NCBI GenBank assembly: GCA_018780265.1
Contig: JADMJV010000021.1
Coordinates: forward strand, 64,001-86,682
DNA length: 22,682 nt
Direction of reading: 5' to 3'
DNA from: a bacterium
Lineage (GTDB): Bacteria; Vulcanimicrobiota; Xenobia; Xenobiales; JADMJV01
In this document: positions 686-21,896 of the stretch, one piece after another
How the letters are laid out: the number at the start of each line of letters is the position of its first letter
Position numbering within the stretch: position 1 is the stretch's first letter
Notes under the pieces: model-generated
The model's database searches: none
Told to the model about the DNA's origin: nothing
The model's input: the letters and a program-made list of their open reading frames with translations, nothing else
Position numbers and translations under genes: made by a program

Positions 686-715
686 AAGCAGACGAGCACG
701 CAGTCGCACGGGGGC

Positions 716-1381: not shown

Positions 1382-1456
1382 CTGCGCTGCTACTACGTTG
1401 GCACGGCCTTCCCTTTGGCAAGCAGGCCAGCGGCCGGCCACCGAGAACCGTGGCGG

Positions 1457-6573: not shown

Positions 6574-6788
6574 CAGCCTTGCCTTTGCGCTTCCGCCAGC
6601 GTGTGTTCGGCCTTGGGACGATGAATCCACGAAGAGACCTGTTTGTAGCCGTTCAGCCCCAGGGCATCGCCTTGCAAGCGGGCCAGCAGTGCAAAGATGG
6701 GCACCACAAACACGTAAAAGGCGGTGAGAATAAGCCGGGACTGAAATTCACCCACGGCCTGAAAAGATTCCTTGACGTAGCTCAACAT
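6573..6788 (-). CDS. Small (71 aa) single-TM protein translationally coupled to the carbamoyltransferase.
   Basis: ATG at 6788 is preceded by GAAGGA with a 5-nt spacer. There is a hydrophobic helix LILTAFYVFVVPIFALLA. Its stop codon shares one nucleotide with the carbamoyltransferase ATG (TGATG at 6571-6575 on the minus strand). Confidence 0.45.
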   Translation of the reverse strand: MLSYVKESFQAVGEFQSRLILTAFYVFVVPIFALLARLQGDALGLNGYKQVSSWIHRPKAEHTLAEAQRQG

Positions 6789-6803
6789 AGGGGTCCTTCG
6801 TGG

Positions 6804-6965
6804 TTAAAAGAGAGTGTAGAGGAACGGGCCCAGACCCGTAGAGTTGCCGAAGACGATAATGCCGACAAAGACCAGCATAATGCAGAGCATGGGGATCAGC
6901 CACCACATCTTCTCTTTCCAAAGAAAACCCATCAATTCGCGGAGGGTAAGCATTGCCGACTTCAT
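6804..6965 (-). CDS. DUF5989 / SxtK-like small membrane protein (53 aa).
   Basis: MKSAMLTLRELMGFLWKEKMWWLIPMLCIMLVFVGIIVFGNSTGLGPFLYTLF. The ...KWWL(I/A)P...G...PF(I/L)YTLF pattern is the hallmark, from memory, of the small proteins found next to NodU/CmcH carbamoyltransferases (SxtK-type). Confidence 0.7.
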   Translation of the reverse strand: MKSAMLTLRELMGFLWKEKMWWLIPMLCIMLVFVGIIVFGNSTGLGPFLYTLF

Positions 6966-6972
6966 TGGTCTT

Positions 6973-7383
6973 TCAGTCCTTCGGTAAAATTGCGTCGCTG
7001 GCGTCGCTCTGCATGCTGCCGAGCAGGATAGCCGCAATGGCCAGAATCTCGCCAAATAGAACACAGTGCTTCAAACTGGTGGTGCTCCCGGGCGTCAATG
7101 GCCAGGCCAGGTTGTGATTGAAGATCATCACGACTTTGGTCAAAATCCAGCAATTGAAACCAAAAAAGAAGCCCACCATCAAATAGCCGAGCAAAGTGGT
7201 GCGATGCTGGCACAGGGCGAAGAAAATACCCAGTACTGCGCAGGCCACCAGGCCCGGTACGGCGCTTGCTAACGGCACCTTGGCTGCCAAAGTAAAGGCT
7301 GCGCCCGCCAGTGCGCCAATTAACGCGCCGGCCCAGGCTGGAATGACCAGTTGGCCTATAGATGAATGAGTATCTGCTACCAC
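6973..7383 (-). CDS. Polytopic small membrane protein (136 aa), possibly the SxtJ-like partner of the DUF5989 protein. Tentative.
   Basis: GTG start. Three to four hydrophobic helices (AWAGALIGALAGAAFTLAA; GLVACAVLGIFFALC; LLGYLMVGFFFGFNCWIL; VLFGEILAIAAILLG). The stop lies 7 nt upstream of the DUF5989 start on the same strand. Confidence 0.45.
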   Translation of the reverse strand: MVADTHSSIGQLVIPAWAGALIGALAGAAFTLAAKVPLASAVPGLVACAVLGIFFALCQHRTTLLGYLMVGFFFGFNCWILTKVVMIFNHNLAWPLTPGSTTSLKHCVLFGEILAIAAILLGSMQSDASDAILPKD

Positions 7384-7433
7384 AGGCGGCCCGTTCGCTA
7401 GTCAATCCGAGCGTTCCTGTGTATACTGCGATC

Positions 7434-7997
7434 ATGAGATTGAATTGTCTTCTTTCCTTGCTGCTATTGACTTCGACCGGTTGGGCTCACCCTCTGGCCG
7501 ACCAGGCCAAGGCCATCGAAGAGCAATCGCTGGTATTGAGACAACGCATGGGTCCCGACAATCCCAACCTGACCTGGGGTCAAAAGATGGCTCTGGACGA
7601 CATTACCCGGTTGGCCAGTGCCGCTTCGGCAGCCCGCCAGGCCCTCACTCCCGAGGACGTGGATTGGGATTCATGCCGGGCCACCTTGGTTGAGATGCAG
7701 GTGGCCGGAAATCGCGTCCGCATGAGTTTGCCGGTTTCGGTGCTCGACAGCGAAGGCCAGACCCTGGGACAGCAAATGGTGCTGCAAGTTCAGGAGATTG
7801 ACAAAGAGGCGCGTGCTGAGAGAGACCAACACTTTGACCGCCAGGTCGCATCCGCACGGCCCAGCATCTCTTTTGGCCTGGGCTTTGGCAACTACTGGGG
7901 CTCGCCGTGGCGTAGTTACGGCTACGGCTTTGGGGGGGGATGTTACCCCGGCTACTTTGGCGGTTACCGAGGCGGCTACGGCCGCCCCTGCCGCTAA
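7434..7997 (+). CDS. Secreted hypothetical protein with a C-terminal Gly/Tyr-rich low-complexity tail.
   Basis: Internal ATG at 7434 gives the signal peptide MRLNCLLSLLLLTSTGWA|HP. The tail is SFGLGFGNYWGSPWRSYGYGFGGGCYPGYFGGYRGGYGRPCR. A TATACT hexamer sits 6 nt upstream of the ATG. Confidence 0.55.
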   Translation: MRLNCLLSLLLLTSTGWAHPLADQAKAIEEQSLVLRQRMGPDNPNLTWGQKMALDDITRLASAASAARQALTPEDVDWDSCRATLVEMQVAGNRVRMSLPVSVLDSEGQTLGQQMVLQVQEIDKEARAERDQHFDRQVASARPSISFGLGFGNYWGSPWRSYGYGFGGGCYPGYFGGYRGGYGRPCR

Positions 7998-8512
7998 TTC
8001 TGCTCGACCAGGATGTCCAAAACCAACTCGCCCAATCTGGCGATTTGGCCGGCCTCGACTTCCAGGTGATCAGACCAGATCTCTTTGTCCCCGATACCGG
8101 CTACCCGCACCAGGTAGGTACGGTCGGACCCCGGCAGGCGCAGTTCAAAGGAGCCGTCTTCGCGGGTAAAAGTCCAGTAACGCTCTTTCTCAAATCGAGC
8201 TTCGACAGCCAGACCCGGGGCGGGACTTGAGCCGCTGGCGGTGGCAATACTGCCTTTGAAACCGGTATCGGAGTCAAGAGGCTGCTCCCAGCCAAACTCA
8301 AGGTCGGCGTGGTCGCCCAGGGCCTTGGTCAACATCAAGTGTCCGTCAGGCGACAACCCGGCCTGCGAAAGCAACTCCAGCGCCGTTTCCTGAATGTAAT
8401 AGTCAACGTCGCTCTCGGTCTCTTCTTCAAGAATCTCTTGGATGACCGTAAAGTCTGCGCGACTGATTTCACCCAGAACAGTACCGGTCGTTCGATCGGA
8501 AAGTATCAGCAT
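7994..8512 (-). CDS. Acidic hypothetical protein (172 aa). The C-terminal half is a beta-sandwich-like region (LVRVAGIGDKEIW...).
   Basis: Complete ORF with ATG start. It is the last gene of the minus-strand operon, 29 nt after the ACT-protein stop. Its stop codon overlaps the stop of the convergent 7434..7997 gene (CTAA). Confidence 0.5.
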   Translation of the reverse strand: MLILSDRTTGTVLGEISRADFTVIQEILEEETESDVDYYIQETALELLSQAGLSPDGHLMLTKALGDHADLEFGWEQPLDSDTGFKGSIATASGSSPAPGLAVEARFEKERYWTFTREDGSFELRLPGSDRTYLVRVAGIGDKEIWSDHLEVEAGQIARLGELVLDILVEQN

Positions 8513-8541
8513 TGGGCTATCTTATCCTCCGAAACGTCAAT

Positions 8542-9072
8542 TCAAACCGAAACCGGCTCGACCTCTACATCTACGTTCAAATCGTCACCCACTTGCTGGA
8601 GACGGCGACGCAAGGCAGAAAGCGACAGCGAGGCAGGAGCGCTGATGCGCATTTGCATTTCAAAAAGCGGCACACCGCTGTAGGGGGCATTGACCAGCTG
8701 GGACTCCAGGTTGTCCACCGATACGCCCTGCTCCACCAGATGATGAACCAGGTCGTGGACGATCCCTTCGTGATCGGCCCCACGCACGGCCACTTGCAGA
8801 GGCAGCATGCCGGCGTGACTGCGCCTCAGAGAGGTGGACTTGTGGGTCATAAGCAGATCTAATTGGCTGGCCACGCTCTCTATTTCTCCCGTCAATCCCG
8901 GCACCTGAGCCTCATCCACCGAACACAGGAACATCATGGCGAACTCGCCGCCAAGCACGGCCATCCTCGAATCTTCCAGGTTGGCCTGGAATTTGGCGAG
9001 TGATTCGGTCACCCGGTCGACCAGACCGGTGCGGTCGGGACCCAAAAGAGAAAATACCAGATACTGCTTCAT
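8542..9072 (-). CDS. Tandem ACT-domain regulatory protein (GcvR / glycine-cleavage-repressor-like).
   Basis: Internal ATG gives MKQYLVFSLLGPDRTGLVDRVTESLAKFQANL (ACT beta-alpha-beta opening). A second ACT-like repeat is LPLQVAVRGADHEGIVHDLVHHLVEQGVSV. Length is 176 aa. Confidence 0.7.
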   Translation of the reverse strand: MKQYLVFSLLGPDRTGLVDRVTESLAKFQANLEDSRMAVLGGEFAMMFLCSVDEAQVPGLTGEIESVASQLDLLMTHKSTSLRRSHAGMLPLQVAVRGADHEGIVHDLVHHLVEQGVSVDNLESQLVNAPYSGVPLFEMQMRISAPASLSLSALRRRLQQVGDDLNVDVEVEPVSV

Positions 9073-9114
9073 GCCTGGCGCTTCTCTGTCGACCCTCGTG
9101 TTCCTACGCAATCT

Positions 9115-10023
9115 TTATGTGTGACTGAGACCCGACTCCAGGGTGCGAAAGTATTCCACCGTCGCCAGTTCGCGCAAGCAATAGGCCTGGTGCGAGGTCA
9201 GCGCAACCTCCGGGTTGGCGTCGGCGGGCAGTTGACTGCGCAGATAGCGCTCCCAGAAGCCGCCCAGATTGCACATTCGGGCTACCGCCAGGCGCGGGGG
9301 ATGCAGTCCGGTCGAAAATCGCGAGCGCAGGCGAGAGTGCTTTTCCACATAGATTCTGGCCGAGCGGGCCTTGGCCCGGGCCTGAGCTAAAGCTCCGGTA
9401 ATATTGGCCCGAGTAGGCGGCCTTTTGATGTGAAAGCCGATGGCCTTATAGTTGTTGTGCTTTTTAAGTCCAATGGCCATCAAGCGCAGGCCTAGCTCCT
9501 GATCCTCCCAGCCATACTCTTTAAAGTCCTCATCAAACAGGCCGGCTTCCTTGAGGTGCTGCAACTTGACCGAGACGTTGCTGGTCCAGAAGAAGGACGT
9601 AGAGATGTCAGCTGCGGTAAATTTCGGCGCCACCGGTCGCACAGGTTCGGAGATGTGATTGACCCAGCCGTTGCATACGCAGCGGTCAAACTGGTCGTGA
9701 ATGACCAGGTGCTCCTCAAGCAGACGAGGGTCGGCCAGCACGTCATCGTCGATATACAGCATCACCCGCCCACGAGCGGCACGAATCCCCGTATTGCGGG
9801 CGGCCGCCAGGGCCGAGTGGGGCTGCCACAAGTAAGTCAGGGGGTAGGGCAGCTCAGACCGAACCTCGCGCACCATATCGGCGGTGCCATCCTCGGAGCC
9901 ATCGTCCACCAGCACCACTTCAAAACGCTCGTGGCCAATCGTCTGGTCACACAGCGACAGCAGCACCGTTTTCAGAGTGGCCTGTCGGTTGCGGCTGCAA
10001 AGGCCCACCGTGATGTCGATCAT
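9115..10023 (-). CDS. Family-2 (GT-A fold) glycosyltransferase.
   Basis: MIDITVGLCSRNRQATLKTVLLSL...VVLVDDGSEDGT...RNTGIRAARG...YIDDD (DxD). Its start overlaps the stop of the upstream GT2 gene as ATGA (10020-10023). Confidence 0.8.
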   Translation of the reverse strand: MIDITVGLCSRNRQATLKTVLLSLCDQTIGHERFEVVLVDDGSEDGTADMVREVRSELPYPLTYLWQPHSALAAARNTGIRAARGRVMLYIDDDVLADPRLLEEHLVIHDQFDRCVCNGWVNHISEPVRPVAPKFTAADISTSFFWTSNVSVKLQHLKEAGLFDEDFKEYGWEDQELGLRLMAIGLKKHNNYKAIGFHIKRPPTRANITGALAQARAKARSARIYVEKHSRLRSRFSTGLHPPRLAVARMCNLGGFWERYLRSQLPADANPEVALTSHQAYCLRELATVEYFRTLESGLSHT

Positions 10024-10853
10024 GAGGAGAGTTCCTTCCAGCCCGCCTGCAGATAGGCCCGCTCCACTTCCAGCCAGCGGCGCACCAGGGCCGGCGCGGG
10101 CAGGCGAGAAAGGAGCGAATTCTTCCAGCGATTGGCAAAATGCAGGCCCGATCGCAACCACATGCGCAACGAAGGATAGCGGCGATATAGTTGGGCCGCG
10201 GCCTGCCCGTCCAGGGCGGCTACCCGCAGACGCTGCTGGTGATCGAGAGGCGGCTTCCAGTGATAGACATAAGTGTGCACGTCAAAAACTCGGGCTACTT
10301 TGAGCCGTTTCAGTCGAACGCCCAGTTCGGCGTCTTCCCAGCGGGCAAAGGATGGGTCGAAGAGACCGGATGTCATCAACAGCCGGCGTTCCAGGGAAGC
10401 ATTGCTGGTACACAGGTAGTTTTTGGAGAAATGCTTCCAGGGTTGACCCAGCGGCGGTAGGGGAGGGTAGAGCGGCTTGGGCACATTGACCACCGGGCCG
10501 CGCACCAGGCAGCCGGGATTGGCCGCCAAAAGGTGAGCGTGGCGCTGCAAAAAATCGGGCGGGATCAAGACGTCGTCGTCCATAAACAGAATGTGCCGAC
10601 CCCGGGCGGCTTCGATAGCCCGGTTACGAGCTCGACTGGTGCCTCCGTGGTCTTGTTGCAGGGCTCGTAGCGGCAACTGACTCTCAAATTCCCGCAAGAC
10701 TTCGGCGGTGTTGTCCTGGCTGCCATCGTCGACCACCAGGATTTCAAAATCGTCGAAGGGGTAATTTTGCAAAGTCAGATGCTGCAGCGTGAGACGCAAG
10801 GCCTGACTGCGATTGCGCGTGGGGATAACGAGGCTCAGGTTCACGGGCGCCAT
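10020..10853 (-). CDS. Family-2 (GT-A fold) glycosyltransferase.
   Basis: LSLVIPTRNRSQALRLTLQHL...ILVVDDGSQDNTAEVL...RNRAIEAARG...FMDDD. The ATG immediately follows the TAA of the upstream PPTase gene (TAAATG). Confidence 0.8.
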   Translation of the reverse strand: MAPVNLSLVIPTRNRSQALRLTLQHLTLQNYPFDDFEILVVDDGSQDNTAEVLREFESQLPLRALQQDHGGTSRARNRAIEAARGRHILFMDDDVLIPPDFLQRHAHLLAANPGCLVRGPVVNVPKPLYPPLPPLGQPWKHFSKNYLCTSNASLERRLLMTSGLFDPSFARWEDAELGVRLKRLKVARVFDVHTYVYHWKPPLDHQQRLRVAALDGQAAAQLYRRYPSLRMWLRSGLHFANRWKNSLLSRLPAPALVRRWLEVERAYLQAGWKELSS

Positions 10854-11552
10854 TTACGGACAGGCACGCCAGTGTCCTTCCGGTCCAAACAAATAGGCCC
10901 GAACCGGCTTCTGGGTAGGGCACACCAGGGCCACACTTACCTCGGGGAAGGGACAGTGGGGACGCGACAGATGCCAGGGTAGTGGCCTGCCTTGCAGGTC
11001 AAACAGTCCCCACCGATCGTCAAAATAGGTGAGGAACTGGTCCAGTGGATGGGTCAGGCCGTCACCCAGGGCTTTGATGTGGGCCTCCTTGGCTGTCCAC
11101 ACCTCGAAAAAGAAATGACGAGGGTTTTCGGACTTCTCTAACTGGAGGGCCTCCGCCGAGGCGAAAAACCTCTGTCCCAGCTTGAGAAACTCGACGCGCC
11201 GTCGCCGGTCTTCCAGGTCCAGTCCCAACTCGCCGTGGGCCGCAATGACCACCCCTGCATAGCCTTCAGAATGGCTTAAATTAAAGGTGCAACTGCCGTC
11301 TCCCAGATAGGGTTTTCCATGAGCAGCCTTGTCCCAGTGAAGATCCTCAGGAGGTCGATCCAGCCACTGGCTGACCAGACGCCGTAACAGGGCGCAGGCC
11401 ACCTGTTGACGGCGTCGGTGGTGGGGAAAAACCAGGCGCGCACAACGCTGCCGGTCGCTGTCGCTGAGCCAGGGGTCCAACTCGTCCTCGGTCCAGCCCG
11501 GATCGTCCAGTTCAAACCAGACCAGGCTGGTCTGCGAGTCAGCCTTCAACAA
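10854..11552 (-). CDS. Sfp/HetI-type 4'-phosphopantetheinyl transferase.
   Basis: FNLSHSEGYAGVV (motif 2) and WTAKEAHIKALG, the W/F-x-x-K-E-A-x-x-K PPTase motif 3. Length ~230 aa. Confidence 0.8.
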   Translation of the reverse strand: MLKADSQTSLVWFELDDPGWTEDELDPWLSDSDRQRCARLVFPHHRRRQQVACALLRRLVSQWLDRPPEDLHWDKAAHGKPYLGDGSCTFNLSHSEGYAGVVIAAHGELGLDLEDRRRRVEFLKLGQRFFASAEALQLEKSENPRHFFFEVWTAKEAHIKALGDGLTHPLDQFLTYFDDRWGLFDLQGRPLPWHLSRPHCPFPEVSVALVCPTQKPVRAYLFGPEGHWRACP

Positions 11553-12408
11553 CCAGTTGCAACGCCGTCTTGCCTACGTAGAGCAGGTCGAATGGACGGA
11601 TCTTAACCACCGAGGTGAGGGGCATTTCGGCGATCCACTCGGTGCCGTCGGTGCGCCTTTCCAGGGTGATGGCGGCGGCCACCGGGCGGGTGAACATGAC
11701 CTCGAAGGCTTTCTCCAGTTCACGCCATTTCCAGGCCATGCAGCGGTAGGGCAGAGCGTCCTCTTCGATCGTCAGGTCCTGATCCCACCAACTGGGGGTA
11801 TCGGGAAGAGGCTCGACACGGGTGCCGCCCAACTGAATCTGGAAACCTGTCATGGGCAGCCGCAGCCCCTGTTGGGCACCACCGAGTATCTCTATAAACA
11901 TGCTGGGCCGCGTCGACAGGGCAATTTTCCGTGAGGCCGACTTGGTATCGCCGCGAGACTCTCCCTCGCGTATGGGATTCCGATAGGCCAGGTCGTGGTT
12001 TACAACCGTGGTGCCGGTTCGGCGCGCTTCGTGAATCTGGCCGATGCGTTCGGGCGCCACACCCCCAAAGCGGAAATCAGCCTGCTGAATATCCAGCAGG
12101 CTGCTGCCTACCTTCACATGGTCTCCTATTTTCAACAGGGCTTCTTTGATGGGGAGACCGTTCACCTCGGTAGGATTGGTGTCTGATCGATGGGCCAGGC
12201 GATAGGCTTTGAGTTCGTCGTCCCAGGTCATGTCGGCGTGAATTCGGGAGATTTGGGGGTCGTTGAGGAGCACCCAGCCCGGCGCCCGATCTCCAGGGGT
12301 GCGGGCCCGCCCAATGGTCACTTCGGCGCTGTCCAGGGGGAACGTTCGACCCTTGTCGGGGCCTTGAGAAACCCGAACCTGCAGACCACAACTGAACATT
12401 AAAGCCAA
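11539..12408 (-). CDS. FHA-domain protein with an uncharacterised C-terminal domain.
   Basis: VTIGRARTPGDRAPGWVLLNDPQISRIHADMTWDDELKAYRLAHRSDTNPTEVNG is a canonical FHA (GR...SR.HA...NGT.VNG). TTG start at 12408 lies 5 nt after GGGAGGA. ATG at 12399 is the alternative. Confidence 0.8.
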   Translation of the reverse strand: MALMFSCGLQVRVSQGPDKGRTFPLDSAEVTIGRARTPGDRAPGWVLLNDPQISRIHADMTWDDELKAYRLAHRSDTNPTEVNGLPIKEALLKIGDHVKVGSSLLDIQQADFRFGGVAPERIGQIHEARRTGTTVVNHDLAYRNPIREGESRGDTKSASRKIALSTRPSMFIEILGGAQQGLRLPMTGFQIQLGGTRVEPLPDTPSWWDQDLTIEEDALPYRCMAWKWRELEKAFEVMFTRPVAAAITLERRTDGTEWIAEMPLTSVVKIRPFDLLYVGKTALQLVVEG

Positions 12409-12569
12409 AACAATCCTCCCTACGACGAACTCCCCGAAGGTTGGGGATTAGCCAAGGTTTTTGCCGAGACCTGCCGTCCCGGCCCAACCTTTTTGGGGAG
12501 TTTCTTTTCGTGGCCGCCAGTCGGGTGGATTCAAGGAAATGGCGGGCCTGTCTAAGAACATTTGCGGCC
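12409..12569. promoter_or_regulatory. Divergent intergenic region between the two FHA genes. It presumably carries both promoters. Contains a GGGAGGA Shine-Dalgarno for the minus-strand gene.
   Basis: 161-bp non-coding gap between opposed starts. GGGAGGA lies 5 nt upstream of the TTG at 12408 (minus strand). Confidence 0.3.
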
Positions 12570-13373
12570 ATGAGTGATGGGACCCGGGAATACAACTATC
12601 AAGATGTGGCCGACCGGTCCGCGCGCTATCCGGTGGTGGGAGCCCTCAATTTGCTGCTGGGCGAGAAGCCTGGCCGGCTGGTTCTGCTCGATGCGCAAAA
12701 TATCAAGATCGGTCGCGATGAAAGCTGCGACCTTCGCTTTGAAATCGATGGATTGAGTCGCAGCCACGCCTTGATCGAACGTCAGGCAGGGGGCGAGTAT
12801 GTGATTACCGACCTGCATTCCACCAACGGACTCTTCGTCAATGGCTACCAGGCCCATCAGCAGGCGTTGCACGACGGTGACCGCATCGCGCTGGGGCCCA
12901 ACCTGGTTTTCTGTTTCCGCGTTTTCCAGTTGGACGAAGCCATGGCCCTGGAAGGTCTGAGCGCAAGTAGTTCGCGTGACGTTGCCACCGGAGCCATCAC
13001 GGCCCCTTTCTTTGAGGAGATGTTGCAGTTCGAATTGGAGTTGGGTCAACGCCGCAATTTCGACGTGGCCCTCATCCATGTGCAGTGGGGCGCCTTTCAA
13101 CAGGGGCATGAAGAACGCCGGGTCCTGGATCTGTACGGCTATCTCGAATCGGTGAAGAAGCCCGGCTCCCTAACCGCACGACTGGGGGCACGCACCTTTG
13201 CCCAATCCATGAGCTACCTCTCCCGCTCTGAGGTAGACCGCCATACCGAGCAACTCTCCCGCCATCTGACCGAAAAGTTCAAGGACGCAACTTTTTTTGT
13301 GGGCTCTGCCTGCAGCCGCGAACTGGCCACTCCTAGCGCCACTAAACTGATTCAAAAAGCGTCTCAGCGCTGA
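12570..13373 (+). CDS. FHA domain fused to a degenerate (probably catalytically inactive) GGDEF-like domain.
   Basis: FHA: IKIGRDESCDLRFEIDGLSRSHALIERQAGGEYVITDLHSTNGLFVNG. GGDEF-like: DVATGAITAPFFEEMLQFELELGQRRNFDVALIHVQWGAF...LTARLGARTFAQ, where GARTF replaces GGDEF. Start chosen at the internal ATG 12570; the track's 12441 is a TTG. Confidence 0.75.
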   Translation: MSDGTREYNYQDVADRSARYPVVGALNLLLGEKPGRLVLLDAQNIKIGRDESCDLRFEIDGLSRSHALIERQAGGEYVITDLHSTNGLFVNGYQAHQQALHDGDRIALGPNLVFCFRVFQLDEAMALEGLSASSSRDVATGAITAPFFEEMLQFELELGQRRNFDVALIHVQWGAFQQGHEERRVLDLYGYLESVKKPGSLTARLGARTFAQSMSYLSRSEVDRHTEQLSRHLTEKFKDATFFVGSACSRELATPSATKLIQKASQR

Positions 13374-13374
13374 G

Positions 13375-14637
13375 ATGTGGCCCTTTGCCGAGCTCAAGGC
13401 GCTGGCCGGACAGGCCGGCAAGGTCGAGTTTCAGGCCGGAGAGATGCTTTTTCGTCAAGGCGATGCCGGCGACAAAGTCTTTCTTATCCGCCGCGGATTG
13501 GTAGAGATTTTTGCCGAAAATTCGGGCCGTCGCCGTCGCCTCAATTTGCGCGGCCGAGGCGAAGTTATCGGTGAGATGGCCCTGCTCGACGGCTTGGGAC
13601 GCTCGGCCAGCGCCGTTGCTCGAACTCAATTACAGGCCCGAACCCTGAGTCGTGACGTTTTTGAGCAACTTCTAACTCACAGACCTGCCCTGGTGCGCAG
13701 CCTGACCAGCCACCTCAGTCACCGCATGCGCGAATTGCAGGGCACTCTGAGCAGCGAACTGGACAAACGCGATCAGGAAGGCAAAGCCACCGGATTGTTC
13801 TCGATCGGTCCCTTTCTACTGGCCGAAAAATTGGGGGAGGGGGGGATGGGGGTGATTTACAGCGCCAGTCATCAGCGCACCGGGCACCCCTACGCCGTCA
13901 AAGTGCTGTCTGTCTCCAGCGAAGAGCAGAGAGCCCGATTTACTCGCGAGTGTGAATTTATGGCCCGCATGGTTCACCCCAACATCGTGCGCATCGATTC
14001 GGCCGGGACCGAAGGCTACTACGGTTACATGGCCATGGAGTTGCTGCGCGGTGAAACCTTGGAGCAGCGGCTCAAGCGTGGGCCCTTGAGCGAAGTCGAG
14101 GTGAGTCGCTGGTTTGTACCGGCCATGGAGGCTTTGGGCTACGCCCACGATATGGGGGTCATGCACCGCGACGTCAAGCCGGCCAATCTCTTTCTGACCC
14201 TGGATGGCACGCTCAAAATGCTCGATTTTGGGATCGCACGCCGCATCAACGGTCCCGAACTCACGGTGGCCGGCCGTTTTTTTGGCACCCCTCAATACCT
14301 TGCCCCGGAGCGCATCGGTGGTCAATCCAAAGCTCAAGAACGACAGTCTGACCAGTATTCCCTGGGCATTTCCATGTATGAGGCAGCGACCGGTCGCTGC
14401 CCCTTTGATTTCGACGATGTGGCCGAAGTGCTGGCCGCCCACCTGCATCGCTGTCCCACCCTGCCCAGTACTATCGCGGCCGTAGACCATGAGGTGGAGT
14501 TGGTCATCATGCGCCTGCTGGCCAAAGAGCCGTCCCGCCGCTATCCCAGCTTTGCAGCCGCCGCCCAGGCCCTGGCAGCGGCCACTTCGGGCAGCGTAAA
14601 ATCTATGACCACCGACTTTGGCACTCGCCGGGACTGA
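13375..14637 (+). CDS. Cyclic-nucleotide-binding domain fused to a Hanks-type Ser/Thr protein kinase.
   Basis: N-terminal cNMP-binding fold: FQAGEMLFRQGDAGDKVFLIRRGLVEIF...GRGEVIGEMALL...RSASAVA. Kinase: GEGGMGVIYSA (G-loop), AVKVL (Lys), HRDVKPANLFL, DFGIAR, GTPQYLAPE. The ATG is 1 nt after the upstream TGA. Confidence 0.9.
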   Translation: MWPFAELKALAGQAGKVEFQAGEMLFRQGDAGDKVFLIRRGLVEIFAENSGRRRRLNLRGRGEVIGEMALLDGLGRSASAVARTQLQARTLSRDVFEQLLTHRPALVRSLTSHLSHRMRELQGTLSSELDKRDQEGKATGLFSIGPFLLAEKLGEGGMGVIYSASHQRTGHPYAVKVLSVSSEEQRARFTRECEFMARMVHPNIVRIDSAGTEGYYGYMAMELLRGETLEQRLKRGPLSEVEVSRWFVPAMEALGYAHDMGVMHRDVKPANLFLTLDGTLKMLDFGIARRINGPELTVAGRFFGTPQYLAPERIGGQSKAQERQSDQYSLGISMYEAATGRCPFDFDDVAEVLAAHLHRCPTLPSTIAAVDHEVELVIMRLLAKEPSRRYPSFAAAAQALAAATSGSVKSMTTDFGTRRD

Positions 14638-14639
14638 CT

Positions 14640-16208
14640 TTACTTGCGGTGGTCCTTGAGAAATTGGCGCCAGCCCTCGGGTAGATGAGTGGCCGGTCGC
14701 CGATCAAAGGAGAGGGTGCCGTGGCCCATCATGGCCAGCACCGTTTGATTAAAAGCCTCGCCGGTGCGCTTGAGCTCGGGACAGGAGGCCGCCAGGCGCG
14801 GCTCACGCTGGAGTTGAGCCAGGAAGCTCCCCAGATCCACTACCGACTGAAAGTCATCAGCATCGGTCGTTTCGCTCTGATCCAGGCAGCGGCGCAGGGT
14901 TTCCTGGTGTCCCCCCTGGCTGAGACGGGTGAGACTGCGCCCCAGTCGGTCCAGGCTGGGCAACAACTGCTTTTGCAGCGCCTGCAGATCGACAGCCACC
15001 AGCGATTTGGCGGGCCGGCCCCGGGCGGCCGAACGCACCAGAGAGGTGCCAAATTCACGCGGGTTGGCAGGGAAGGAACTCTGACCAAACATCGACTCCA
15101 GGGGAAAACCAAAGCCTCGCACGGTGTGCTCGGAAACCACCGCCACCCGAGCCGATCCGGTCAACTTGCTGAGCGACTCCAGTTGCCCGCCGTTGCAAAC
15201 GTCGAGCACAATAGCCTCGGCCCCTTGCACGGTGCGGGCCAGGGCGTCAAAGGACAACCCGGCAGCACTTTGCTGCAGCCCGTGACCGGAGACGTAAACC
15301 ACATGGCGAGAGTTGGGCCATTGGCCGAGGTTTTTTTGCCACAGTTGCTCAAATTGAGACGCTCGGGGGCCATTTCCTACCACTTGATGGGACACATGCT
15401 TCCAGGTCGGGGCCACTTCGTCGTGCTGAGCCACCTTTTGTTTCAGCGCTTGCAGATGTTGGCCGGCGCTCTCGGCGCCGACCTTGGCCCCCAAGCCCCC
15501 TGCCAGCGTGAGCAGACCGCCCAAAACCAGGAGGGGTACGCTCAGAGGGCCTCCCTGCAAGGCCTGCACACAGGCGGTGCCGGCCACCACCAGGCCGGCT
15601 GCCCCCATCGCCCCCATGACCACTGGCAAAGCCGTATGCACGGCATCGCTGGCCACTCCTCCCGCCGCCGACAATCCGCTGACCTCAACCGGTGCCTGCG
15701 TCTTCTCGAGCATCTTTTCAAAGCGAGCGGGTTGGCCCTTGACGTGGCGAGCGATGTCGGGCACCGAGGCATCCCCGAAATAGGTGACCAACAGCGGTTG
15801 ATCGGAAGTCTGGAAAGTGTCCGAAGCGGCACTCCCCATGACCCCAAGCGACAGGGCAGGGTCGTTGATGGTGCCAAACTGCAGGCTCCCGCCGTCGCGC
15901 AGCGGCGTCCACTCATCGCTGGACGCTTTACGACCGTCGATCAGCGTGGTGCCGGTATGCAGGTCGCGCACCCAGAGCTGCCCCTCTTTCCACTGCCCCT
16001 CCGCCTGTTTGGGCTGCCCGGCCCAGCGCACCTGGCAATCAGGGTCCTGTCCAATGGTAAAGACCGAACCATCGGTAGGAAAACGCAGCGAGCCGCCATC
16101 TGGCGTCAGCAGACGCTGCCGCTCAGGCTGCAGGCTCAGCGAATGTCCGATGGACCTGGGCTGATTCCCCGGATTGGATTGCACACGCATAGACTCAGAG
16201 AATATCAC
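14640..16208 (-). CDS. FHA-domain membrane protein with a C-terminal caspase/metacaspase-like (clan CD, peptidase C14-like) domain.
   Basis: N-terminal FHA: SVFTIGQDPDCQVRWAG...LWVRDLHTGTTLIDGRK. There are two hydrophobic segments in the middle (PVVMGAMGAAGLVVAGTACVQAL; LLVLGGLLTLAGGLGA). The C-terminal blocks HVVYVSGHG and AIVLDVCNGG fit the metacaspase His (YSGHG) and Cys (D-x-C-x-x-G) dyad pattern. Confidence 0.7.
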   Translation of the reverse strand: MIFSESMRVQSNPGNQPRSIGHSLSLQPERQRLLTPDGGSLRFPTDGSVFTIGQDPDCQVRWAGQPKQAEGQWKEGQLWVRDLHTGTTLIDGRKASSDEWTPLRDGGSLQFGTINDPALSLGVMGSAASDTFQTSDQPLLVTYFGDASVPDIARHVKGQPARFEKMLEKTQAPVEVSGLSAAGGVASDAVHTALPVVMGAMGAAGLVVAGTACVQALQGGPLSVPLLVLGGLLTLAGGLGAKVGAESAGQHLQALKQKVAQHDEVAPTWKHVSHQVVGNGPRASQFEQLWQKNLGQWPNSRHVVYVSGHGLQQSAAGLSFDALARTVQGAEAIVLDVCNGGQLESLSKLTGSARVAVVSEHTVRGFGFPLESMFGQSSFPANPREFGTSLVRSAARGRPAKSLVAVDLQALQKQLLPSLDRLGRSLTRLSQGGHQETLRRCLDQSETTDADDFQSVVDLGSFLAQLQREPRLAASCPELKRTGEAFNQTVLAMMGHGTLSFDRRPATHLPEGWRQFLKDHRK

Positions 16209-16229
16209 GCCAGGCCCCGCCTTGCCAAA

Positions 16230-16793
16230 TCACGACGCAGTAGGAGTGCCCAGAGGCGCGAACAGGTCCTTTAGATCCAGGGTAAAGCCCCCATAACTCC
16301 AGCGATCCTCCTCGGCCAGGGCTGCTTCAAGCCGATAAGCCCCCCGGTCCAAGCGCAGATGCTCCAGCGTGCGCTCCTCGGGATCGACCAGCACATACTC
16401 CGCTACCCCACTCGCGGCATAGCGATTGAGCTTGCGAACCCGGTCGTGGGAGGCATTCGAGGGCGAGAGAACCTCTACCAACATCTGCGGGATGCCTTCA
16501 ATAAAGTTAGTCTTCACCATGCCAAACTGTTCCGGCAGCAGAAAGATTAAATCGGGCTGCACCGGGCTACAGCCGGGCATCAACAGGTCCATCGGGGCAT
16601 CGAAGACGGCCCCCAGGCCTCTCTGCTCCAGTTGATAAAGAAAAAATTGCAGTCGTCGTGACACAATCTGATGAACGGTTCGGGGACTGGGAGACATGAA
16701 GAGTTCTCCGTCGATAACTTCGTAGCGCCTGCCATCCTCGGGCAGGCCTAGATAATCCTCATAGGTCCAACGTCGGGGCTGAGAGAGGGTCAT
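16230..16793 (-). CDS. Uma2-family (DUF820) putative PD-(D/E)xK endonuclease.
   Basis: MTLSQPRRWTYEDYLGLPEDGRRYEVIDGELFMSPSP...VQPDLIFL...PQMLVEVLSPSN...YAASGVAEYVLVDP is a classic Uma2 layout. Start taken at the internal ATG 16793. Confidence 0.8.
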   Translation of the reverse strand: MTLSQPRRWTYEDYLGLPEDGRRYEVIDGELFMSPSPRTVHQIVSRRLQFFLYQLEQRGLGAVFDAPMDLLMPGCSPVQPDLIFLLPEQFGMVKTNFIEGIPQMLVEVLSPSNASHDRVRKLNRYAASGVAEYVLVDPEERTLEHLRLDRGAYRLEAALAEEDRWSYGGFTLDLKDLFAPLGTPTAS

Positions 16794-16891
16794 AGACCTC
16801 CATTTCACCACGCCTGTGCCATAGCCTGCTCGACTGGCATTGCAATCTGCCGCCAGGTAGGAATGCAGCTGGACTTGAGGTATCTTCAAAT
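16794..16891. promoter_or_regulatory. Divergent intergenic region between the Uma2 endonuclease and the DUF1998 helicase.
   Basis: 98-bp gap between opposed start codons. No convincing -35/-10 could be assigned by eye. Confidence 0.25.
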
Positions 16892-19354
16892 ATGAGCATA
16901 ACAACGGTCCTCGAGGAACTGCTGGCGATCGAAGGCAGACGCGACACGCTGACGCGCATTGAGAGATTTCCAGCCAGACCCGCCCGGTGGGGGCCGTGGC
17001 CCGGCGTGATCCGGGACGAACTCAAGCAAGCCCTGCGGGCCAAGGGGATCGAGCGTCTTTATTCGCACCAGAGCCAGGCCGTCGAAGCGGGCGTGGCCGG
17101 CCGCGATCTGGTGATTGTCACTCCCACGGCTTCGGGCAAGACCCTATGTTACAACCTGCCCGTGGTCCAGTCGGTGCTGCAAGAGGCCAGCAGCCGCGCC
17201 CTGTACCTTTTCCCCACCAAGGCTCTGGCTCAGGATCAGATGGCCGAATTGCACGACCTGTGCAAGCGGCTGGAAACGTCTGTACAACTCAATCTGGGGG
17301 CCTTCACCTACGACGGCGATACCCCCGCCGACGCGCGCAGGGCCGTACGTTCCAAAGCCCACGTGGTGATCACCAATCCGGACATGCTACACACCGGTGT
17401 ACTGCCCCATCACACCAAGTGGAGCCGCTTTTTTGGCAATCTGCGCTACGTGGTGGTGGACGAACTGCACACCTATCGGGGCGTTTTTGGCAGCCACCTG
17501 GCCAATGTCTTTCGCCGCCTCCAACGGATCTGTCAGTTTCATGGATCCAATCCCACCTTTATCTGCTGCAGCGCCACCATTGCCAATCCCAAGCAGTTGG
17601 CCGAGAGCCTGTTGGAGCGTGAGGTTGAGTTGGTAGGGGAGAGCGGCGCCCCTCAGGGCGAGAAGACCTTTCTCTTCTACAATCCCCCCATGCTGAACAA
17701 AGAACTGGGAATTCGCCGTTCTTACGTCAGTTCGGCCCGACGTCTGGCCGGAAAATTCATCGAGAAAGGGCACAAAACCATTCTTTTCACCGGTTCCCGC
17801 CTCAACGTGGAGGTGCTGACCCGGTATCTCAAAGACAAGTTTGAGCGTACTGAGGCCGAAGAGGGTCGCATTCGCGGCTATCGCGGCGGCTATCTGCCCG
17901 GCCTGCGTCGCGAGATCGAAAGCGGCCTGCGCCAGGGCACAGTGCTGGCCGTGGTCAGCACCAGCGCTCTCGAGCTGGGCATCGACGTGGGCAGCCTGGA
18001 TGTGGCCATCCTGGCCGGCTACCCGGGATCGGTGGCCAGCACCTGGCAGCAGGCCGGTCGGGCCGGTCGGCGTCAATCGGCCTCGGTGGTGGTCATGGTG
18101 GCCCGTAGCGATCCGTTGGACCAGTTTTTGATGCAGCATCCCGAGTATTTCTTTGAGAGCAGCCCCGAACACGCTCGCATCAATCCCGATAATCCGGCGA
18201 TTTTGTTGAGCCACGTGAAGTGCGCCGCTTTCGAACTGCCCCTGGAGAAAGGCGAAAAACTGGGCCGGGCCACCATCGACGAAATCGTGGCTTATCTGGT
18301 GGAGAAACAGGTGCTCCACGAATCGGGCGACCAGGTTCACTGGGCTCAGGAAGTCTATCCCGCCGACAACATTAGCCTGCGCAGCAGCGGTCCCGAGAAC
18401 TTCGTGATTATGGACATGGACCAGAACAACCGCGTCATCGCCGAGGTGGACTGGAATTCGGCCCGCTCCACGGTATATGAAGATGCCATCTATATGTGCG
18501 AGGCCAGAACTTACAACGTCAAACGCCTGGACTACGCCCAGCGACGCGCCTACGTGCGCGCCGTCGAGGTGGACTATTACACCGACGCCATCACCTCCAC
18601 GGCCGTCAAAGTGCTGGACAGTTTTCAACGCCAGTCGGTGCCGGCCGAAGAGCGGGTGGTCTACGAGCACGGCGAGGTGCACGTCAGTTGGCGCGTTTCG
18701 GGCTTTAAGAAGATCAAGTTCTACAGCCGCGAGAACGTAGGATTCGGCCAGGTCCACCTGCCCGATCACGAGATGCACACCACCTCGTTCTGGCTCACCT
18801 TGCGCGAAGAGTTTTTTAAGGACCTGCAACTCAATCGGGCCGACAGCCTGGAGGGAGTGTTGGGCCTGGCCCACTGTCTCCATCATCTGGCTCCCCTCTA
18901 CCTGATGTGCGACGCCAAAGATCTGGACCATTGCGTGGGCGAGCGTTCCGGGCGCTGGTTTGTGCGTCCCGAGGCATCCACTCAGGGGCGTTATGAGTTT
19001 GCCCTGGCTGCCGGCGATGACTCCGATAGCCAGGGTGAAAACTGGCTGCGCATCGGGGCCAACGAACCTGAGAAGCTGGAAGACTTGCCCACCGAGGTGT
19101 TGGGCCGCTTTGATCCCACCCTCTACCTTTATGACAATATCCCCGGCGGCATGGGACTGGCCTCTCAGCTTTTCGATCTCTTTCCCACATTGCTGGCCCA
19201 AACGTGTCAAATGCTGGAAACTTGCCCCTGCGATGAGGGCTGTCCCAGTTGCGTGGGCCCCCCGCACGAAGTAGGCGGACGGGCCCGAGCGGTGGCCCTT
19301 CAGATCGCCCGTGCCCTTCAAGAATTTGAAGCCGTGTCAGCCAGGCCTTCTTGA
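16892..19354 (+). CDS. DEAD/DEAH-box (DExH) helicase with C-terminal DUF1998 four-cysteine domain (MrfA/YprA-like).
   Basis: Motif I TPTASGKT, motif II VVDELH, motif III CCSATIANP, motif VI QQAGRAGRR. The C-terminal DUF1998-type cluster is ...HCVGE...TCPCDEGCPSCVGPP. Length is 820 aa. Confidence 0.9.
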   Translation: MSITTVLEELLAIEGRRDTLTRIERFPARPARWGPWPGVIRDELKQALRAKGIERLYSHQSQAVEAGVAGRDLVIVTPTASGKTLCYNLPVVQSVLQEASSRALYLFPTKALAQDQMAELHDLCKRLETSVQLNLGAFTYDGDTPADARRAVRSKAHVVITNPDMLHTGVLPHHTKWSRFFGNLRYVVVDELHTYRGVFGSHLANVFRRLQRICQFHGSNPTFICCSATIANPKQLAESLLEREVELVGESGAPQGEKTFLFYNPPMLNKELGIRRSYVSSARRLAGKFIEKGHKTILFTGSRLNVEVLTRYLKDKFERTEAEEGRIRGYRGGYLPGLRREIESGLRQGTVLAVVSTSALELGIDVGSLDVAILAGYPGSVASTWQQAGRAGRRQSASVVVMVARSDPLDQFLMQHPEYFFESSPEHARINPDNPAILLSHVKCAAFELPLEKGEKLGRATIDEIVAYLVEKQVLHESGDQVHWAQEVYPADNISLRSSGPENFVIMDMDQNNRVIAEVDWNSARSTVYEDAIYMCEARTYNVKRLDYAQRRAYVRAVEVDYYTDAITSTAVKVLDSFQRQSVPAEERVVYEHGEVHVSWRVSGFKKIKFYSRENVGFGQVHLPDHEMHTTSFWLTLREEFFKDLQLNRADSLEGVLGLAHCLHHLAPLYLMCDAKDLDHCVGERSGRWFVRPEASTQGRYEFALAAGDDSDSQGENWLRIGANEPEKLEDLPTEVLGRFDPTLYLYDNIPGGMGLASQLFDLFPTLLAQTCQMLETCPCDEGCPSCVGPPHEVGGRARAVALQIARALQEFEAVSARPS

Positions 19355-19438
19355 AAGCCATAGGTGCGATGCCCGCATAGTTCGTATCCATTGCGCCAGC
19401 GTAAATAGCCGCCATCACTCCCACAGTCTGAATCGAAA

Positions 19439-20015
19439 TCACCAGCACATTGCCCACCACCCAAGCAGAGCTCCCAGGGCCGCACCCGCCAAGATTTGGC
19501 GGAACCAATGCTCCAGTTGGGGGAGGCCCTGGTCACCAATTTTTCCGGAGGAAACGGCATCTTTGATGGGACCGATTACGGGAGCGTAAATCTGCTGAGC
19601 CAATCGCGTCACAAGAAAAACGAAATTATAGATTGACAGCGCCGTCGCCACCCTCCCGGTCAACACTGCGGATACTCGGCTCGAAATGGCACTGGAAGCC
19701 AACAGTGATACAACAGCATTGAGCGCCACTACCGCCCAAAGAGCTTGCACAAGAGAGTGTCCGTGTTGAGCCAGTGACTGGGTGGCACTGCGAATGATCC
19801 GCCAGTGCGCACAATCCCCCAACCGTCCAAATGGCGGTGGCGGCGACATTGGTCAGCAGGAAGGCCGCTGGCACGCCTTCCAGGCAAAACAATTTGATAC
19901 CCAGACTCCCCGGTGGTCTCAGCGAGCGCAGCAAAGTGCGCCACCCTTGCGGAGTCAACAGGCGGAGCAAAACTCTGAGCATCGATTGGCGGTGAGTATC
20001 TCCTTGGATATCCAT
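19439..20015 (-). pseudogene. Possible frameshifted and truncated N-terminal membrane-domain remnant of an ABC exporter. Low confidence.
   Basis: Two overlapping minus-strand ORFs lie in different frames (19626..20015 and 19439..19849). Concatenated, they read like the start of a type-I ABC exporter TMD: MLRVLLRLLTPQGWRTLL...LFCLEGVPAAFLLTNVAATAIW // LWAVVALNAVVSLLASS...GRVATALSIYNFVFLVTRLAQQ...ILAGAALGALLGWWAM. No ATPase domain follows. Confidence 0.25.
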
Positions 20016-20117
20016 CGACGTCGCCCTTTTTCCCCGTCCAGATGGTCCCCTGGTTCGGTCTCAGCAGGGGCCGCTGCGAGTGGCGCGAAAGCGGATCAGG
20101 TGTTACGTCACCTTCCA

Positions 20118-20501
20118 ATGCTCCTGAGAGTTTATCAATCCGTCAAAATACGCCACTTGCGTTGGGCTGCCGGGCTATTGGTGCTGTCTGTCTGCGGCTG
20201 CGGCGCTGGCATAGGAGCCATGACCTATGGCTGGCACGGCGCGCTGCTAGCCCCCTTGGGCCTGCTGGTCACGATGGCCCTGGCTTTACACCTCTTCATT
20301 GTCATCTCACTGGCCCTGGGAATGCGAAGCTATCGTAACAAGCAGCCCCGAGCCGCCCTCTTGTTCTTGTGGGTTGCGGCTGTTTTTCGCAGCTACGACC
20401 GGAGTGGCAAGGCCAACTCGGCCCTGGTGGAGTCACGCAACCTGGTGACTGCGCAAATGATGCAGAAGATGGCTATGAGCTTCCTGTCCCAGCCTCGCTA
20501 G
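20118..20501 (+). CDS. Small hypothetical membrane protein (127 aa, three predicted helices).
   Basis: Internal ATG 20118 of ORF 19782..20501. Hydrophobic segments WAAGLLVLSVCGCGAGIGAM, ALLAPLGLLVTMALALHLFIVISLALG and ALLFLWVAAVF. The 5' part of the long ORF (MALRMIRQCAQSPNRPNGGGG...) is not protein-like. Confidence 0.3.
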   Translation: MLLRVYQSVKIRHLRWAAGLLVLSVCGCGAGIGAMTYGWHGALLAPLGLLVTMALALHLFIVISLALGMRSYRNKQPRAALLFLWVAAVFRSYDRSGKANSALVESRNLVTAQMMQKMAMSFLSQPR

Positions 20502-20807: not shown

Positions 20808-21896
20808 GTGCAGGGCCATTATGACAGCAGCGGCCGGATCAGCCTGGATCTCGAATCGGCCGCGCGACGTATCGCCGGCAACCAGACGGTCAATCCCAGC
20901 GAGGCAGTGGCCAGTCTATTGGCCGGCCTGCTGGCATGGAACCCCACCAGCCTGCACCTCAACACTTGGGATGGCCTGGCTGTGGGAGCCACAGGGCTGC
21001 ACCGTCGTCCTGATATGCTGGAGTTGATCAGCGCTCGATTCTTGTCTAACACCGTCGATTGGGTCGCCGATCACCTCTGTCTCGGTCTCCACTCCTTGCT
21101 CCAAGGGGTCCGGTCAGCCGCCTTTCACTGCACAAACCCGGCTCACTCTCTGGGCCTTCGCCACCCCATAGAGGCCCAATGGCCCATGGCTCCACGCTGG
21201 CCTCGACATCTGCCCCCGGCCCCAAATCTAGACGCCCACTGGAGGCTGTTCCCGGCTCCCCCCCTCGACCTTGCTTGCCTGCGACGCCGCTTTCTTAAAT
21301 GTCACGTACCGCTGTTCATCAACGGTCAGCCCCTGCTCCAACACGCCCTGCAACCATCCACCCTGGAATACCTGTGGGAAAGTCACGATCTTCACCTACC
21401 CTCTCCCGACCAGGGGTTTGCGGCCGCCTCCCTTGGCTATGCGGGCGTGGAACTGGGTCAGGATCTGGGCCAGCCATTGCTCCTGAAAAAGAAGCACACC
21501 CTGATATTGGGACGCGACTTCGACGGCCCGGCGTGCAAAACTCCGCCCCTCTACCAACTCGAAAGACCCGAATCGATTTCCCTGTTTCGCTCAGGAACCG
21601 GTCACTGGGCATCCGTTCCTCGGTGCAGCTCGTGCGCCGCCCTGCAACTGAGAACCCGGCATGCCACACGGGTATTCGCCGTCGTCCATGGATTCACACT
21701 CGACCCCCTGGAGCTACCCGACTGGGAGCCTGGTTGGCGCGTCTGGGTGCCGTCCCCCGCCCACTACCTCTCGCCCGACCTACGATCCCTGATCCAGCCC
21801 AAAATCATTATGAAAAGAGCGGCGGAATCGCTGTCTCGTGCAAAAAAGCGCCTCCAGCCCCACCAGGCCAACCTGCTCAACTCTCTGCCGCGCTAG
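20808..21896 (+). CDS. Hypothetical protein (362 aa) with a Pro-rich central segment. No recognisable domain.
   Basis: Long ORF with coding-like third-position GC bias. GTG start. The alternative overlapping frames (21299..21916 +, 21319..21669 -) are Pro/Arg/Gly-rich and junk-like. The start site is uncertain. Confidence 0.4.
   Translation: MQGHYDSSGRISLDLESAARRIAGNQTVNPSEAVASLLAGLLAWNPTSLHLNTWDGLAVGATGLHRRPDMLELISARFLSNTVDWVADHLCLGLHSLLQGVRSAAFHCTNPAHSLGLRHPIEAQWPMAPRWPRHLPPAPNLDAHWRLFPAPPLDLACLRRRFLKCHVPLFINGQPLLQHALQPSTLEYLWESHDLHLPSPDQGFAAASLGYAGVELGQDLGQPLLLKKKHTLILGRDFDGPACKTPPLYQLERPESISLFRSGTGHWASVPRCSSCAALQLRTRHATRVFAVVHGFTLDPLELPDWEPGWRVWVPSPAHYLSPDLRSLIQPKIIMKRAAESLSRAKKRLQPHQANLLNSLPR

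Follow-up and report, generated by a model that had tools for sequence, protein, structure and literature searches.

A MrfA/YprA-family helicase gene and its probably incidental Uma2 neighbour in a Xenobiales genome

The DNA-repair branch of the YprA family of helicases includes Bacillus subtilis MrfA and Mycobacterium smegmatis SftH, for which 3'-to-5' helicase activity and the repair of mitomycin C adducts have been reported (PMC7797055; bioRxiv 10.1101/426304; bioRxiv 10.1101/2025.09.15.676423), and its members are found either in a "YprA only" state, which has no conserved context, or associated with MrfB (Bell et al. 2025, bioRxiv 10.1101/2025.09.15.676423). MrfA is the more widely distributed of the two proteins (Burby and Simmons, bioRxiv 10.1101/426304), and the nucleases of the YprA family are either fused to the helicase or encoded by downstream genes (Bell et al. 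2025). Here we describe a helicase of this family from a stretch of 22.7 kb (22,682 nucleotides, "the window") of a Xenobiales genome (Vulcanimicrobiota; assembly GCA_018780265.1, contig JADMJV010000021.1, positions 64,001 to 86,682), the start codon of which faces that of a divergently transcribed gene for a protein of the Uma2 nuclease family. It was originally predicted that the two genes could form a helicase-nuclease module for repair or against foreign DNA. We consider it highly probable that the helicase is instead a repair-branch MrfA/YprA protein in the YprA-only state, and that the Uma2 gene is an independent accessory insertion of ~640 bp and an incidental neighbour.

The window, which has a G+C content of ~60%, covers 16.9 kb upstream and 3.3 kb downstream of the helicase gene. 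The features that matter most to the argument are as follows.

14640 to 16190, minus strand: FHA/C11-like protein of 516 amino acids (aa), the lineage-conserved divergent neighbour of the helicase (orthologues and Pfam; start set by alignment)
16209 to 16845, no strand: strain-specific inserted segment of ~640 bp with approximate boundaries, made up of the Uma2 coding sequence and short flanks (nucleotide synteny and alignments)
16230 to 16793, minus strand: Uma2-family (DUF820/TT1808, COG4636) protein of PD-(D/E)xK fold, 187 aa (PF05685, PADLOC, PDB, motifs)
16794 to 16891, no strand: divergent spacer of 98 bp between the start codons of Uma2 and helicase (sequence, alignment, blastn boundaries)
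16892 to 19354, plus strand: MrfA/YprA-family superfamily 2 DExH DNA helicase, 820 aa (Pfam, PDB 6znp, motifs)

The helicase and described members of its family

The best match of the window helicase among all PDB sequences is B. subtilis YprA/MrfA (6znp, E = 2.1e-235), the next matches, to Lhr-type and Hel308/Ski2-type helicases, being at 1e-20 or weaker, and its top NCBIfam model is TIGR03817 (6e-194). The match to MrfA is near full-length, with residues 13-682 and 742-804 collinear with residues 15-673 and 684-745 of the 751-residue 6znp_A. At the level of sequence this aligned span takes in the RecA1, RecA2, winged-helix, OB and connector regions of MrfA and the MZB domain ("MrfA Zn-binding domain", formerly DUF1998), and the full auxiliary-domain architecture is collinear with the solved structure. 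The Pfam domains follow the order seen in MrfA, namely DEAD (9.6e-35), Helicase_C (6e-13), the winged helix WHD_HRQ1 (8.7e-09) and MZB/DUF1998 (PF09369, 4.4e-18), and all the expected DExH motifs were found, with motif I (GKT) at residue 82, motif II (DELH, of the DExH type) at 190, motif III (SAT) at 227 and motif VI (QQAGRAGR) at 386.

The C-terminal cysteine cluster CPCDEGCPSC lies at residues 778-787 (CxCxxxCxxC), and its four cysteines, C778, C780, C784 and C787, are invariant across an alignment of 14 helicase sequences. A closely spaced four-cysteine coil has been shown to bind Zn2+ in MrfA (Roske et al., PMC7797055), and the same coil is present in the window helicase. The working criteria for a MrfA homologue are a DExH core, a C-terminal domain and four conserved cysteines (Burby and Simmons), all of which the window helicase has. 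The original prediction of a MrfA/YprA-like DExH helicase with a C-terminal four-cysteine DUF1998 module is confirmed by these matches and, judged by its sequence, the protein is an orthologue-grade member of the YprA-family repair branch that includes MrfA and SftH. It should be borne in mind that cross-species complementation fails for distant MrfA homologues (Burby and Simmons).

There are two differences from B. subtilis. The first is a segment of ~60 extra residues (683-741) inside the MZB region relative to Bacillus MrfA, which is present at least partly in 13 aligned homologues from other metagenome-assembled genomes (MAGs) and is therefore not peculiar to the window strain. The second is that mrfAB is described as a predicted operon in B. 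subtilis, whereas no mrfB/yprB gene lies downstream of the window helicase. The organism is not a cyanobacterium: its nearest helicase homologues belong to MAGs designated "bacterium" or Candidatus Eremiobacteraeota, with Vulcanimicrobiota and Candidatus Xenobia among the nearest representative genomes.

From the homology with MrfA and SftH we infer that the window protein is most likely a monomeric, ATP-driven 3'-to-5' DNA helicase that loads on single-stranded DNA, with an OB-connector-MZB "canopy" that would close over the loading strand, and its probable role would be in the excision-type repair of bulky adducts. The usual partner exonuclease MrfB/YprB, which is not adjacent in this lineage, would then be encoded elsewhere in the genome or be absent.

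DISARM shares with the window a YprA-family helicase core and DUF1998, but there the two are split between the DrmA helicase and DrmB, which carries DUF1998, and are accompanied by the PLD nuclease DrmC and a methyltransferase, whereas in the window a single 820-aa open reading frame (ORF) contains both. As had been predicted, the partners known from DISARM are missing: neither in the window nor in the 10-kb flanks of the close relatives described below did we detect a gene for a DNA methyltransferase, a PLD nuclease or a separate DUF1998 protein. The DrmA models match only part of the helicase core, at 1e-26 or weaker, and the DpdF/DpdJ and Druantia DruE models likewise match only parts of the RecA core, far more weakly than TIGR03817.

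The Uma2 gene and its absence from close relatives

The Uma2 gene had been predicted to diverge from the helicase, and this is borne out by a near full-length match to PF05685 on the minus strand (6e-31; 107.7 bits, the gathering cut-off being 27). The gene begins with the ATG at 16793 (MTLSQPRR), rather than the upstream TTG of the mechanically called ORF, and the same start is found in the closest homologue; the predicted distance of 98 bp between the divergent starts is exact. The protein belongs to the Uma2/DUF820/TT1808 family (PF05685, COG4636; PDB 1wdj, 3ot2, 6okh, 9y1l), with PDB matches to 9y1l (1.3e-32), 6okh and 1wdj, and its motifs are intact, with YEVIDG at residue 24, QPDL at 79, EVLSPS at 107 and EYVLVDP at 132. 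It keeps the family signature PD...EV.S...EY..VD and so may be an active nuclease; it is probably a PD-(D/E)xK endonuclease that stands alone, and the Uma2 family to which it belongs is mobile and multi-copy. There is nothing distinctive in the window member, and the term "endonuclease" is a prediction for the whole family. The protein also matches the PADLOC model PDC-S03 (1.3e-34), an unvalidated candidate on which a literature search found nothing. Base composition was considered as a sign of foreign origin and rejected, the gene having a GC content of 0.576, and of 0.649 at third codon positions (GC3), only slightly below its neighbours.

The locus was compared with those of five distinct close relatives (P0002, P0003, P0004, P0007 and P0011; loci L001-L009), the helicases of which are 81-87% identical to that of the window. 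At the nucleotide level window positions 3955-12398 and 16872-19311 align with the relatives' loci. Relatives with enough flanking sequence keep the left-hand block, consisting of genes for an ACT protein, two GT2 glycosyltransferases, a phosphopantetheinyl transferase (ACPS) and an FHA protein, and in three of them synteny reaches a carbamoyltransferase gene. Next to this block four of the five have a 476-509-aa orthologue of the 516-aa FHA/C11-like protein, with the helicase gene divergent from it at a distance of 84-160 bp. None of the five has a Uma2 gene at the same intergenic position. The inserted segment of the window sits between two genes that are direct divergent neighbours in the relatives: blastn synteny with L002, L003, L007 and L008 stops at ~16208 and resumes at 16856-16875, and outside the window the intervening segment (~16209-16845) was found only in the contig of a sister strain, L091.

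The 98-bp spacer is itself divided by this boundary. Its helicase-proximal ~45 bp (16846-16891) are common to all relatives and read GGTAGGAA...TTGAGGTA.CTTCAA.ATG, including the Shine-Dalgarno sequence GAGG, whereas the Uma2-proximal ~52 bp are common only to the sister strain. The layout of the helicase leader, GGTAGGAA followed after ~12 nt by TTGAGGTAGTTTCAAGCATG, is found in L002, L003, L007, L008 and L091. The ~45-bp leader is conserved about as well as coding sequence, and GGTAGGAA is at most a candidate regulatory element.

The sister contig, L091, is a metagenomic contig of 2.4 kb that has 92% nucleotide identity to the window and evidently comes from a sister strain; it carries the closest Uma2 homologue (P0121, 97% identical). 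Its gene order is helicase start, conserved leader, a gene for a 252-aa alpha/beta hydrolase, Uma2 and FHA/C11-like gene, the additional gene being the following.

L091 278 to 1036 (equivalent to ~16838-16850 of the window), plus strand: alpha/beta-hydrolase gene, 252 aa (AHSMGG serine motif; DUF900, 2.7e-05)

The hydrolase gene lies exactly at the junction of the Uma2 cassette and the conserved helicase leader. Since it intervenes between Uma2 and helicase, the two are not constant neighbours even at the strain level, and the intergenic DNA in front of the helicase gene seems to be a minor hotspot where accessory genes are gained and lost at that level. Uma2 would be a compact insertion of ~640 bp between the helicase and its ancestral divergent neighbour, and a recent one in this strain. 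Given that Uma2 is absent from the same position in the related genomes examined, the pair does not constitute a conserved helicase-nuclease module.

The other Uma2 homologues are found in a variety of contexts. P0122 (85% identical) has a transposase fragment and a TetR gene next to it on a contig named Xenobiales, P0128 (62%) lies beside IS66 genes in the MAG GCA_018266105.1, which carries its syntenic helicase (P0004) on a different contig, and P0155 (56%) is one of a tandem Uma2 pair near cell-wall genes; no DUF1998 helicase was found near any of the three. These variable contexts, two of them beside mobile-element genes, resemble those of the family outside cyanobacteria, where Uma2/DUF820 genes have no conserved context and mobile elements are among their surroundings (Steczkiewicz et al. 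2012, PMC3424549). The tandem pair (L094 1769-3013) fits with there being many Uma2 copies in the class.

Recurrent partners of the helicase and alternative explanations

A broader sample was taken of 80 loci (0.97 Mb), with one genome per species (GTDB representatives), from Acidobacteriota, Syntrophia-type deltaproteobacteria, Aminicenantes, Planctomycetia, Xenobia and others, the helicases of which are 48-59% identical to the query. Blind clustering of two genes on each side of the helicase in these loci gave one dominant family, a protein of ~430 aa encoded directly downstream on the same strand, which carries a DnaQ-type "DTETTG" motif, matches PF13482 (1.6e-35) together with TPR and the solved MrfB exonuclease 8un9 (1.7e-28), and has members that are named YprB in public sources. 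In GC-rich loci a greedy calling of ORFs gave false antisense frames and undercounted this family (32 loci); the counts given here come from a profile built from 34 of the neighbours, run on stop-to-stop ORFs in the 75 loci for which 1.3 kb or more of downstream DNA is available. MrfB/YprB is present in 56 of these (adjacent downstream in 52, fused in two and nearby downstream in two), and by the same profile there is none in the other 19. The recovery of MrfB by a blind approach in 56 of 75 loci validates the neighbourhood test. The apparent MrfA-MrfB fusions, each a single uninterrupted frame (L021 5997-9707 and L067 5961-9572), fit the "fused to MrfB" state mentioned by Bell et al.

The absence of an adjacent MrfB from the window, which had been predicted, is borne out, as the 34-neighbour profile matched nothing in either the window or L001-L009, although another part of the genome may encode an unlinked copy. 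The locus therefore resembles the "YprA only" state of Bell et al., a repair-type helicase with no conserved partner, as do the 19 sampled loci without MrfB, an assignment made here from similarity to MrfA and the absence of defence-branch features and not from placement in a tree.

Uma2 behaves quite differently from MrfB in the same sample. It was not found within two called genes of a MrfA-like helicase in any of 74 other loci which, with its absence from all five close relatives, shows that the adjacency does not recur, an outcome that was to count against the predicted module. A profile of 121 Uma2 sequences, run with filters off and E values up to 50 over the 80 loci, matched only the window and L011, a Candidatus Xenobia locus, which is the one locus in 80 with Uma2 within 6 kb. 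In L011 the Uma2 gene is 3.1 kb downstream of the helicase, past mrfB, to which it is convergent at 235 bp beyond its end (9578-11635). A phmmer search with a single Uma2 sequence, which alone is too insensitive, agrees with this profile, as does a separate Pfam scan of 107 flanking ORFs similar in size to Uma2, to which the L011 ORF was added as a positive control: it revealed no recurrent Uma2, and at most one member, the positive control itself.

Several points weigh against an incidental insertion beside a YprA-only helicase. Around the Uma2 insert, direct or inverted repeats and a target-site duplication were looked for and only short, chance-level matches were found, so that neither flanking repeats nor a transposase mark the insertion. 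Only 22.7 kb of the genome lies behind the analysis, and an unlinked mrfB may therefore exist. The L011 locus is from the same class and has Uma2 within 4 kb of mrfA-mrfB, which could hint at a weak association, or could reflect many Uma2 copies. Finally, the lack of conservation may be compatible with a very recent, strain-level functional recruitment of Uma2.

Other explanations of the locus have to be weighed against an incidental Uma2 neighbour, and the first concerns the genes that flank the helicase in the lineage. These, together with a second insertion in the window, are the following.

11539 to 12408, minus strand: conserved FHA gene to the left of the second insertion
12399 to 14640, genes on the plus strand: second window-specific insertion relative to the five relatives, a tightly packed FHA protein and kinase
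12441 to 13373, plus strand: FHA-domain protein in the second insertion
13375 to 14637, plus strand: Ser/Thr kinase that binds cyclic nucleotide monophosphate (cNMP), in the second insertion

It might be proposed that the helicase is tied to these FHA and Ser/Thr-kinase signalling genes, as part of a phosphorylation-dependent control of repair. Four of the five distinct relatives (L001-L004 and L007-L009) have an orthologue of the FHA/C11-like gene, with 45-48% identity, as the immediate divergent neighbour of the helicase. A convergent gene for a Pkinase-AAA_16 protein of 1,200 aa overlaps the 3' end of the helicase gene in four of the relatives, and in the fifth it lies 18 bp past the stop codon. 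The window has gained the extra pair of FHA and cNMP-binding kinase genes (12441-14637), and L011 has a kinase-like sequence upstream of its helicase. Against this, the synteny is confined to relatives with helicases 81-89% identical, for which shared ancestry suffices, one relative (L005/L006) lacks the C11-like gene, and there is no large kinase in the window. Other genes lie upstream of the helicase in the more distant Eremiobacterota-type loci L012 and L068 and in the Planctomycetia locus L010, and no such pairing stands out among the 80 loci. With synteny in close relatives only, the functional link was rejected and is quite improbable.

The FHA/C11-like protein, which had been called an FHA-metacaspase, has an N-terminal FHA region, a hydrophobic central part and, at the C terminus, a region with weak similarity to clostripain (C11). 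The label holds only in part, the FHA match being sub-threshold (E = 0.0013, 19.5 bits against 20.7) and the Peptidase_C11 match weak (E = 0.0065). The middle of the protein is strongly hydrophobic and rich in Gly and Ala, which suggests membrane-spanning segments. The gene most likely starts at the ATG at 16190 (MRVQS), the MR(V/I)Q sequence being conserved in relatives, which gives a protein of 516 rather than 522 aa; Uma2 was correctly placed directly upstream of it, but the gap is 39 nt from the reassigned start and not 21 nt. The protein evolves much faster than its neighbours, its orthologues being 45-48% identical, whereas in the same relatives the adjacent FHA protein is 74-77% and the helicase 83-87% identical. 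The second insertion is wedged between the FHA gene at 11539-12408 and the FHA/C11-like gene, so that three FHA-type proteins and a kinase are encoded within 5 kb.

A further explanation is that Uma2 replaces MrfB as the nuclease partner of the helicase, with the two genes co-regulated from the 98-bp divergent region as a repair or anti-foreign-DNA module. The divergent arrangement at 98 bp, the absence of canonical MrfB from the window, the intact catalytic-type motifs of Uma2, the use of PD-(D/E)xK nucleases such as Vsr by other branches of the YprA family (Bell et al.) and the one further Xenobia locus with Uma2 within 4 kb of mrfAB would all be consistent with this. The adjacency is real, but it is missing from all five distinct close relatives, is interrupted by a hydrolase gene in the 92%-identical sister strain, and is missing within two called genes in 74 of 74 distant loci, and the closest other Uma2 homologues never adjoin such a helicase. 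In the loci examined the MrfB nuclease gene is directly downstream on the same strand or fused, and none is divergent. Uma2 is moreover co-directional with the FHA/C11-like gene and not with the helicase; if anything, operon logic would tie it to that gene, 39 nt downstream, a link that is unsupported because relatives carry the FHA/C11-like gene without Uma2. A functional module is therefore very unlikely. There is an equally slender chance that a newly inserted Uma2 has been co-opted as the nuclease of a MrfA-type helicase in a strain-level lineage that lacks an adjacent MrfB which, if true, would represent a very young helicase-nuclease pairing and the first assigned function for the Uma2 family.

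Least probable of all, and very unlikely, is an anti-phage system with an unusual nuclease, either DISARM-like or of another YprA-family type (DISARM, Dpd, Druantia, ARMADA, BRIGADE or TALON). The PADLOC models SngC, BrxHI, DruE, DrmA and DpdF do match the helicase (1.7e-50 to 1e-11), and PDC-S03 matches Uma2, but the helicase matches span only its RecA-core portion or stop short of the C-terminal domain, the similarity to repair MrfA is much stronger (2e-235, nearly full-length), and the flanking genes are housekeeping and signalling genes kept in synteny rather than a defence island. A DUF1998 module fused to the helicase, where DISARM has it split, the lack of partners, and the lack of a C-terminal nuclease domain such as that of the ARMADA or Druantia helicases together leave the defence reading unsupported.

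Other features of the window and significance

Beyond the helicase the window differs from all its relatives, nucleotide homology with them ending at the helicase stop codon. The remaining features are listed below.

32 to 892, plus strand: large ORF of 286 aa, no Pfam match
911 to 3847, plus strand: large ORF of 978 aa, no Pfam match
19365 to 19849, minus strand: decayed gene for Amj ("alternate to MurJ" lipid II flippase), immediately past the stop codon of the helicase (Pfam)
19782 to 20501, plus strand: large ORF of 239 aa, no Pfam match
20808 to 21896, plus strand: large ORF of 362 aa, no Pfam match

In the decayed Amj gene, positions 1-85 of the profile are matched in one frame (19439-19849, 4.6e-14) and positions 149-180 in another (~19365-19460, 7.7e-05), the rest being missing. 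As synteny with all relatives ends at this gene, the site looks like a rearrangement scar, or is possibly an assembly join. The four large ORFs have no counterpart in any fetched locus and some of them may not be real genes, given the GC-rich DNA. A tRNA scan and an Rfam scan of the window were both empty.

The helicase gene, then, is of a known type, its configuration is known as well, and its neighbour is coincidental. The value of the locus lies mostly in correct annotation, the helicase being a MrfA/YprA homologue of the repair type in the partner-less ("YprA only") state that is already documented, and in the caution it urges when a functional module is proposed from one divergent pair of genes.

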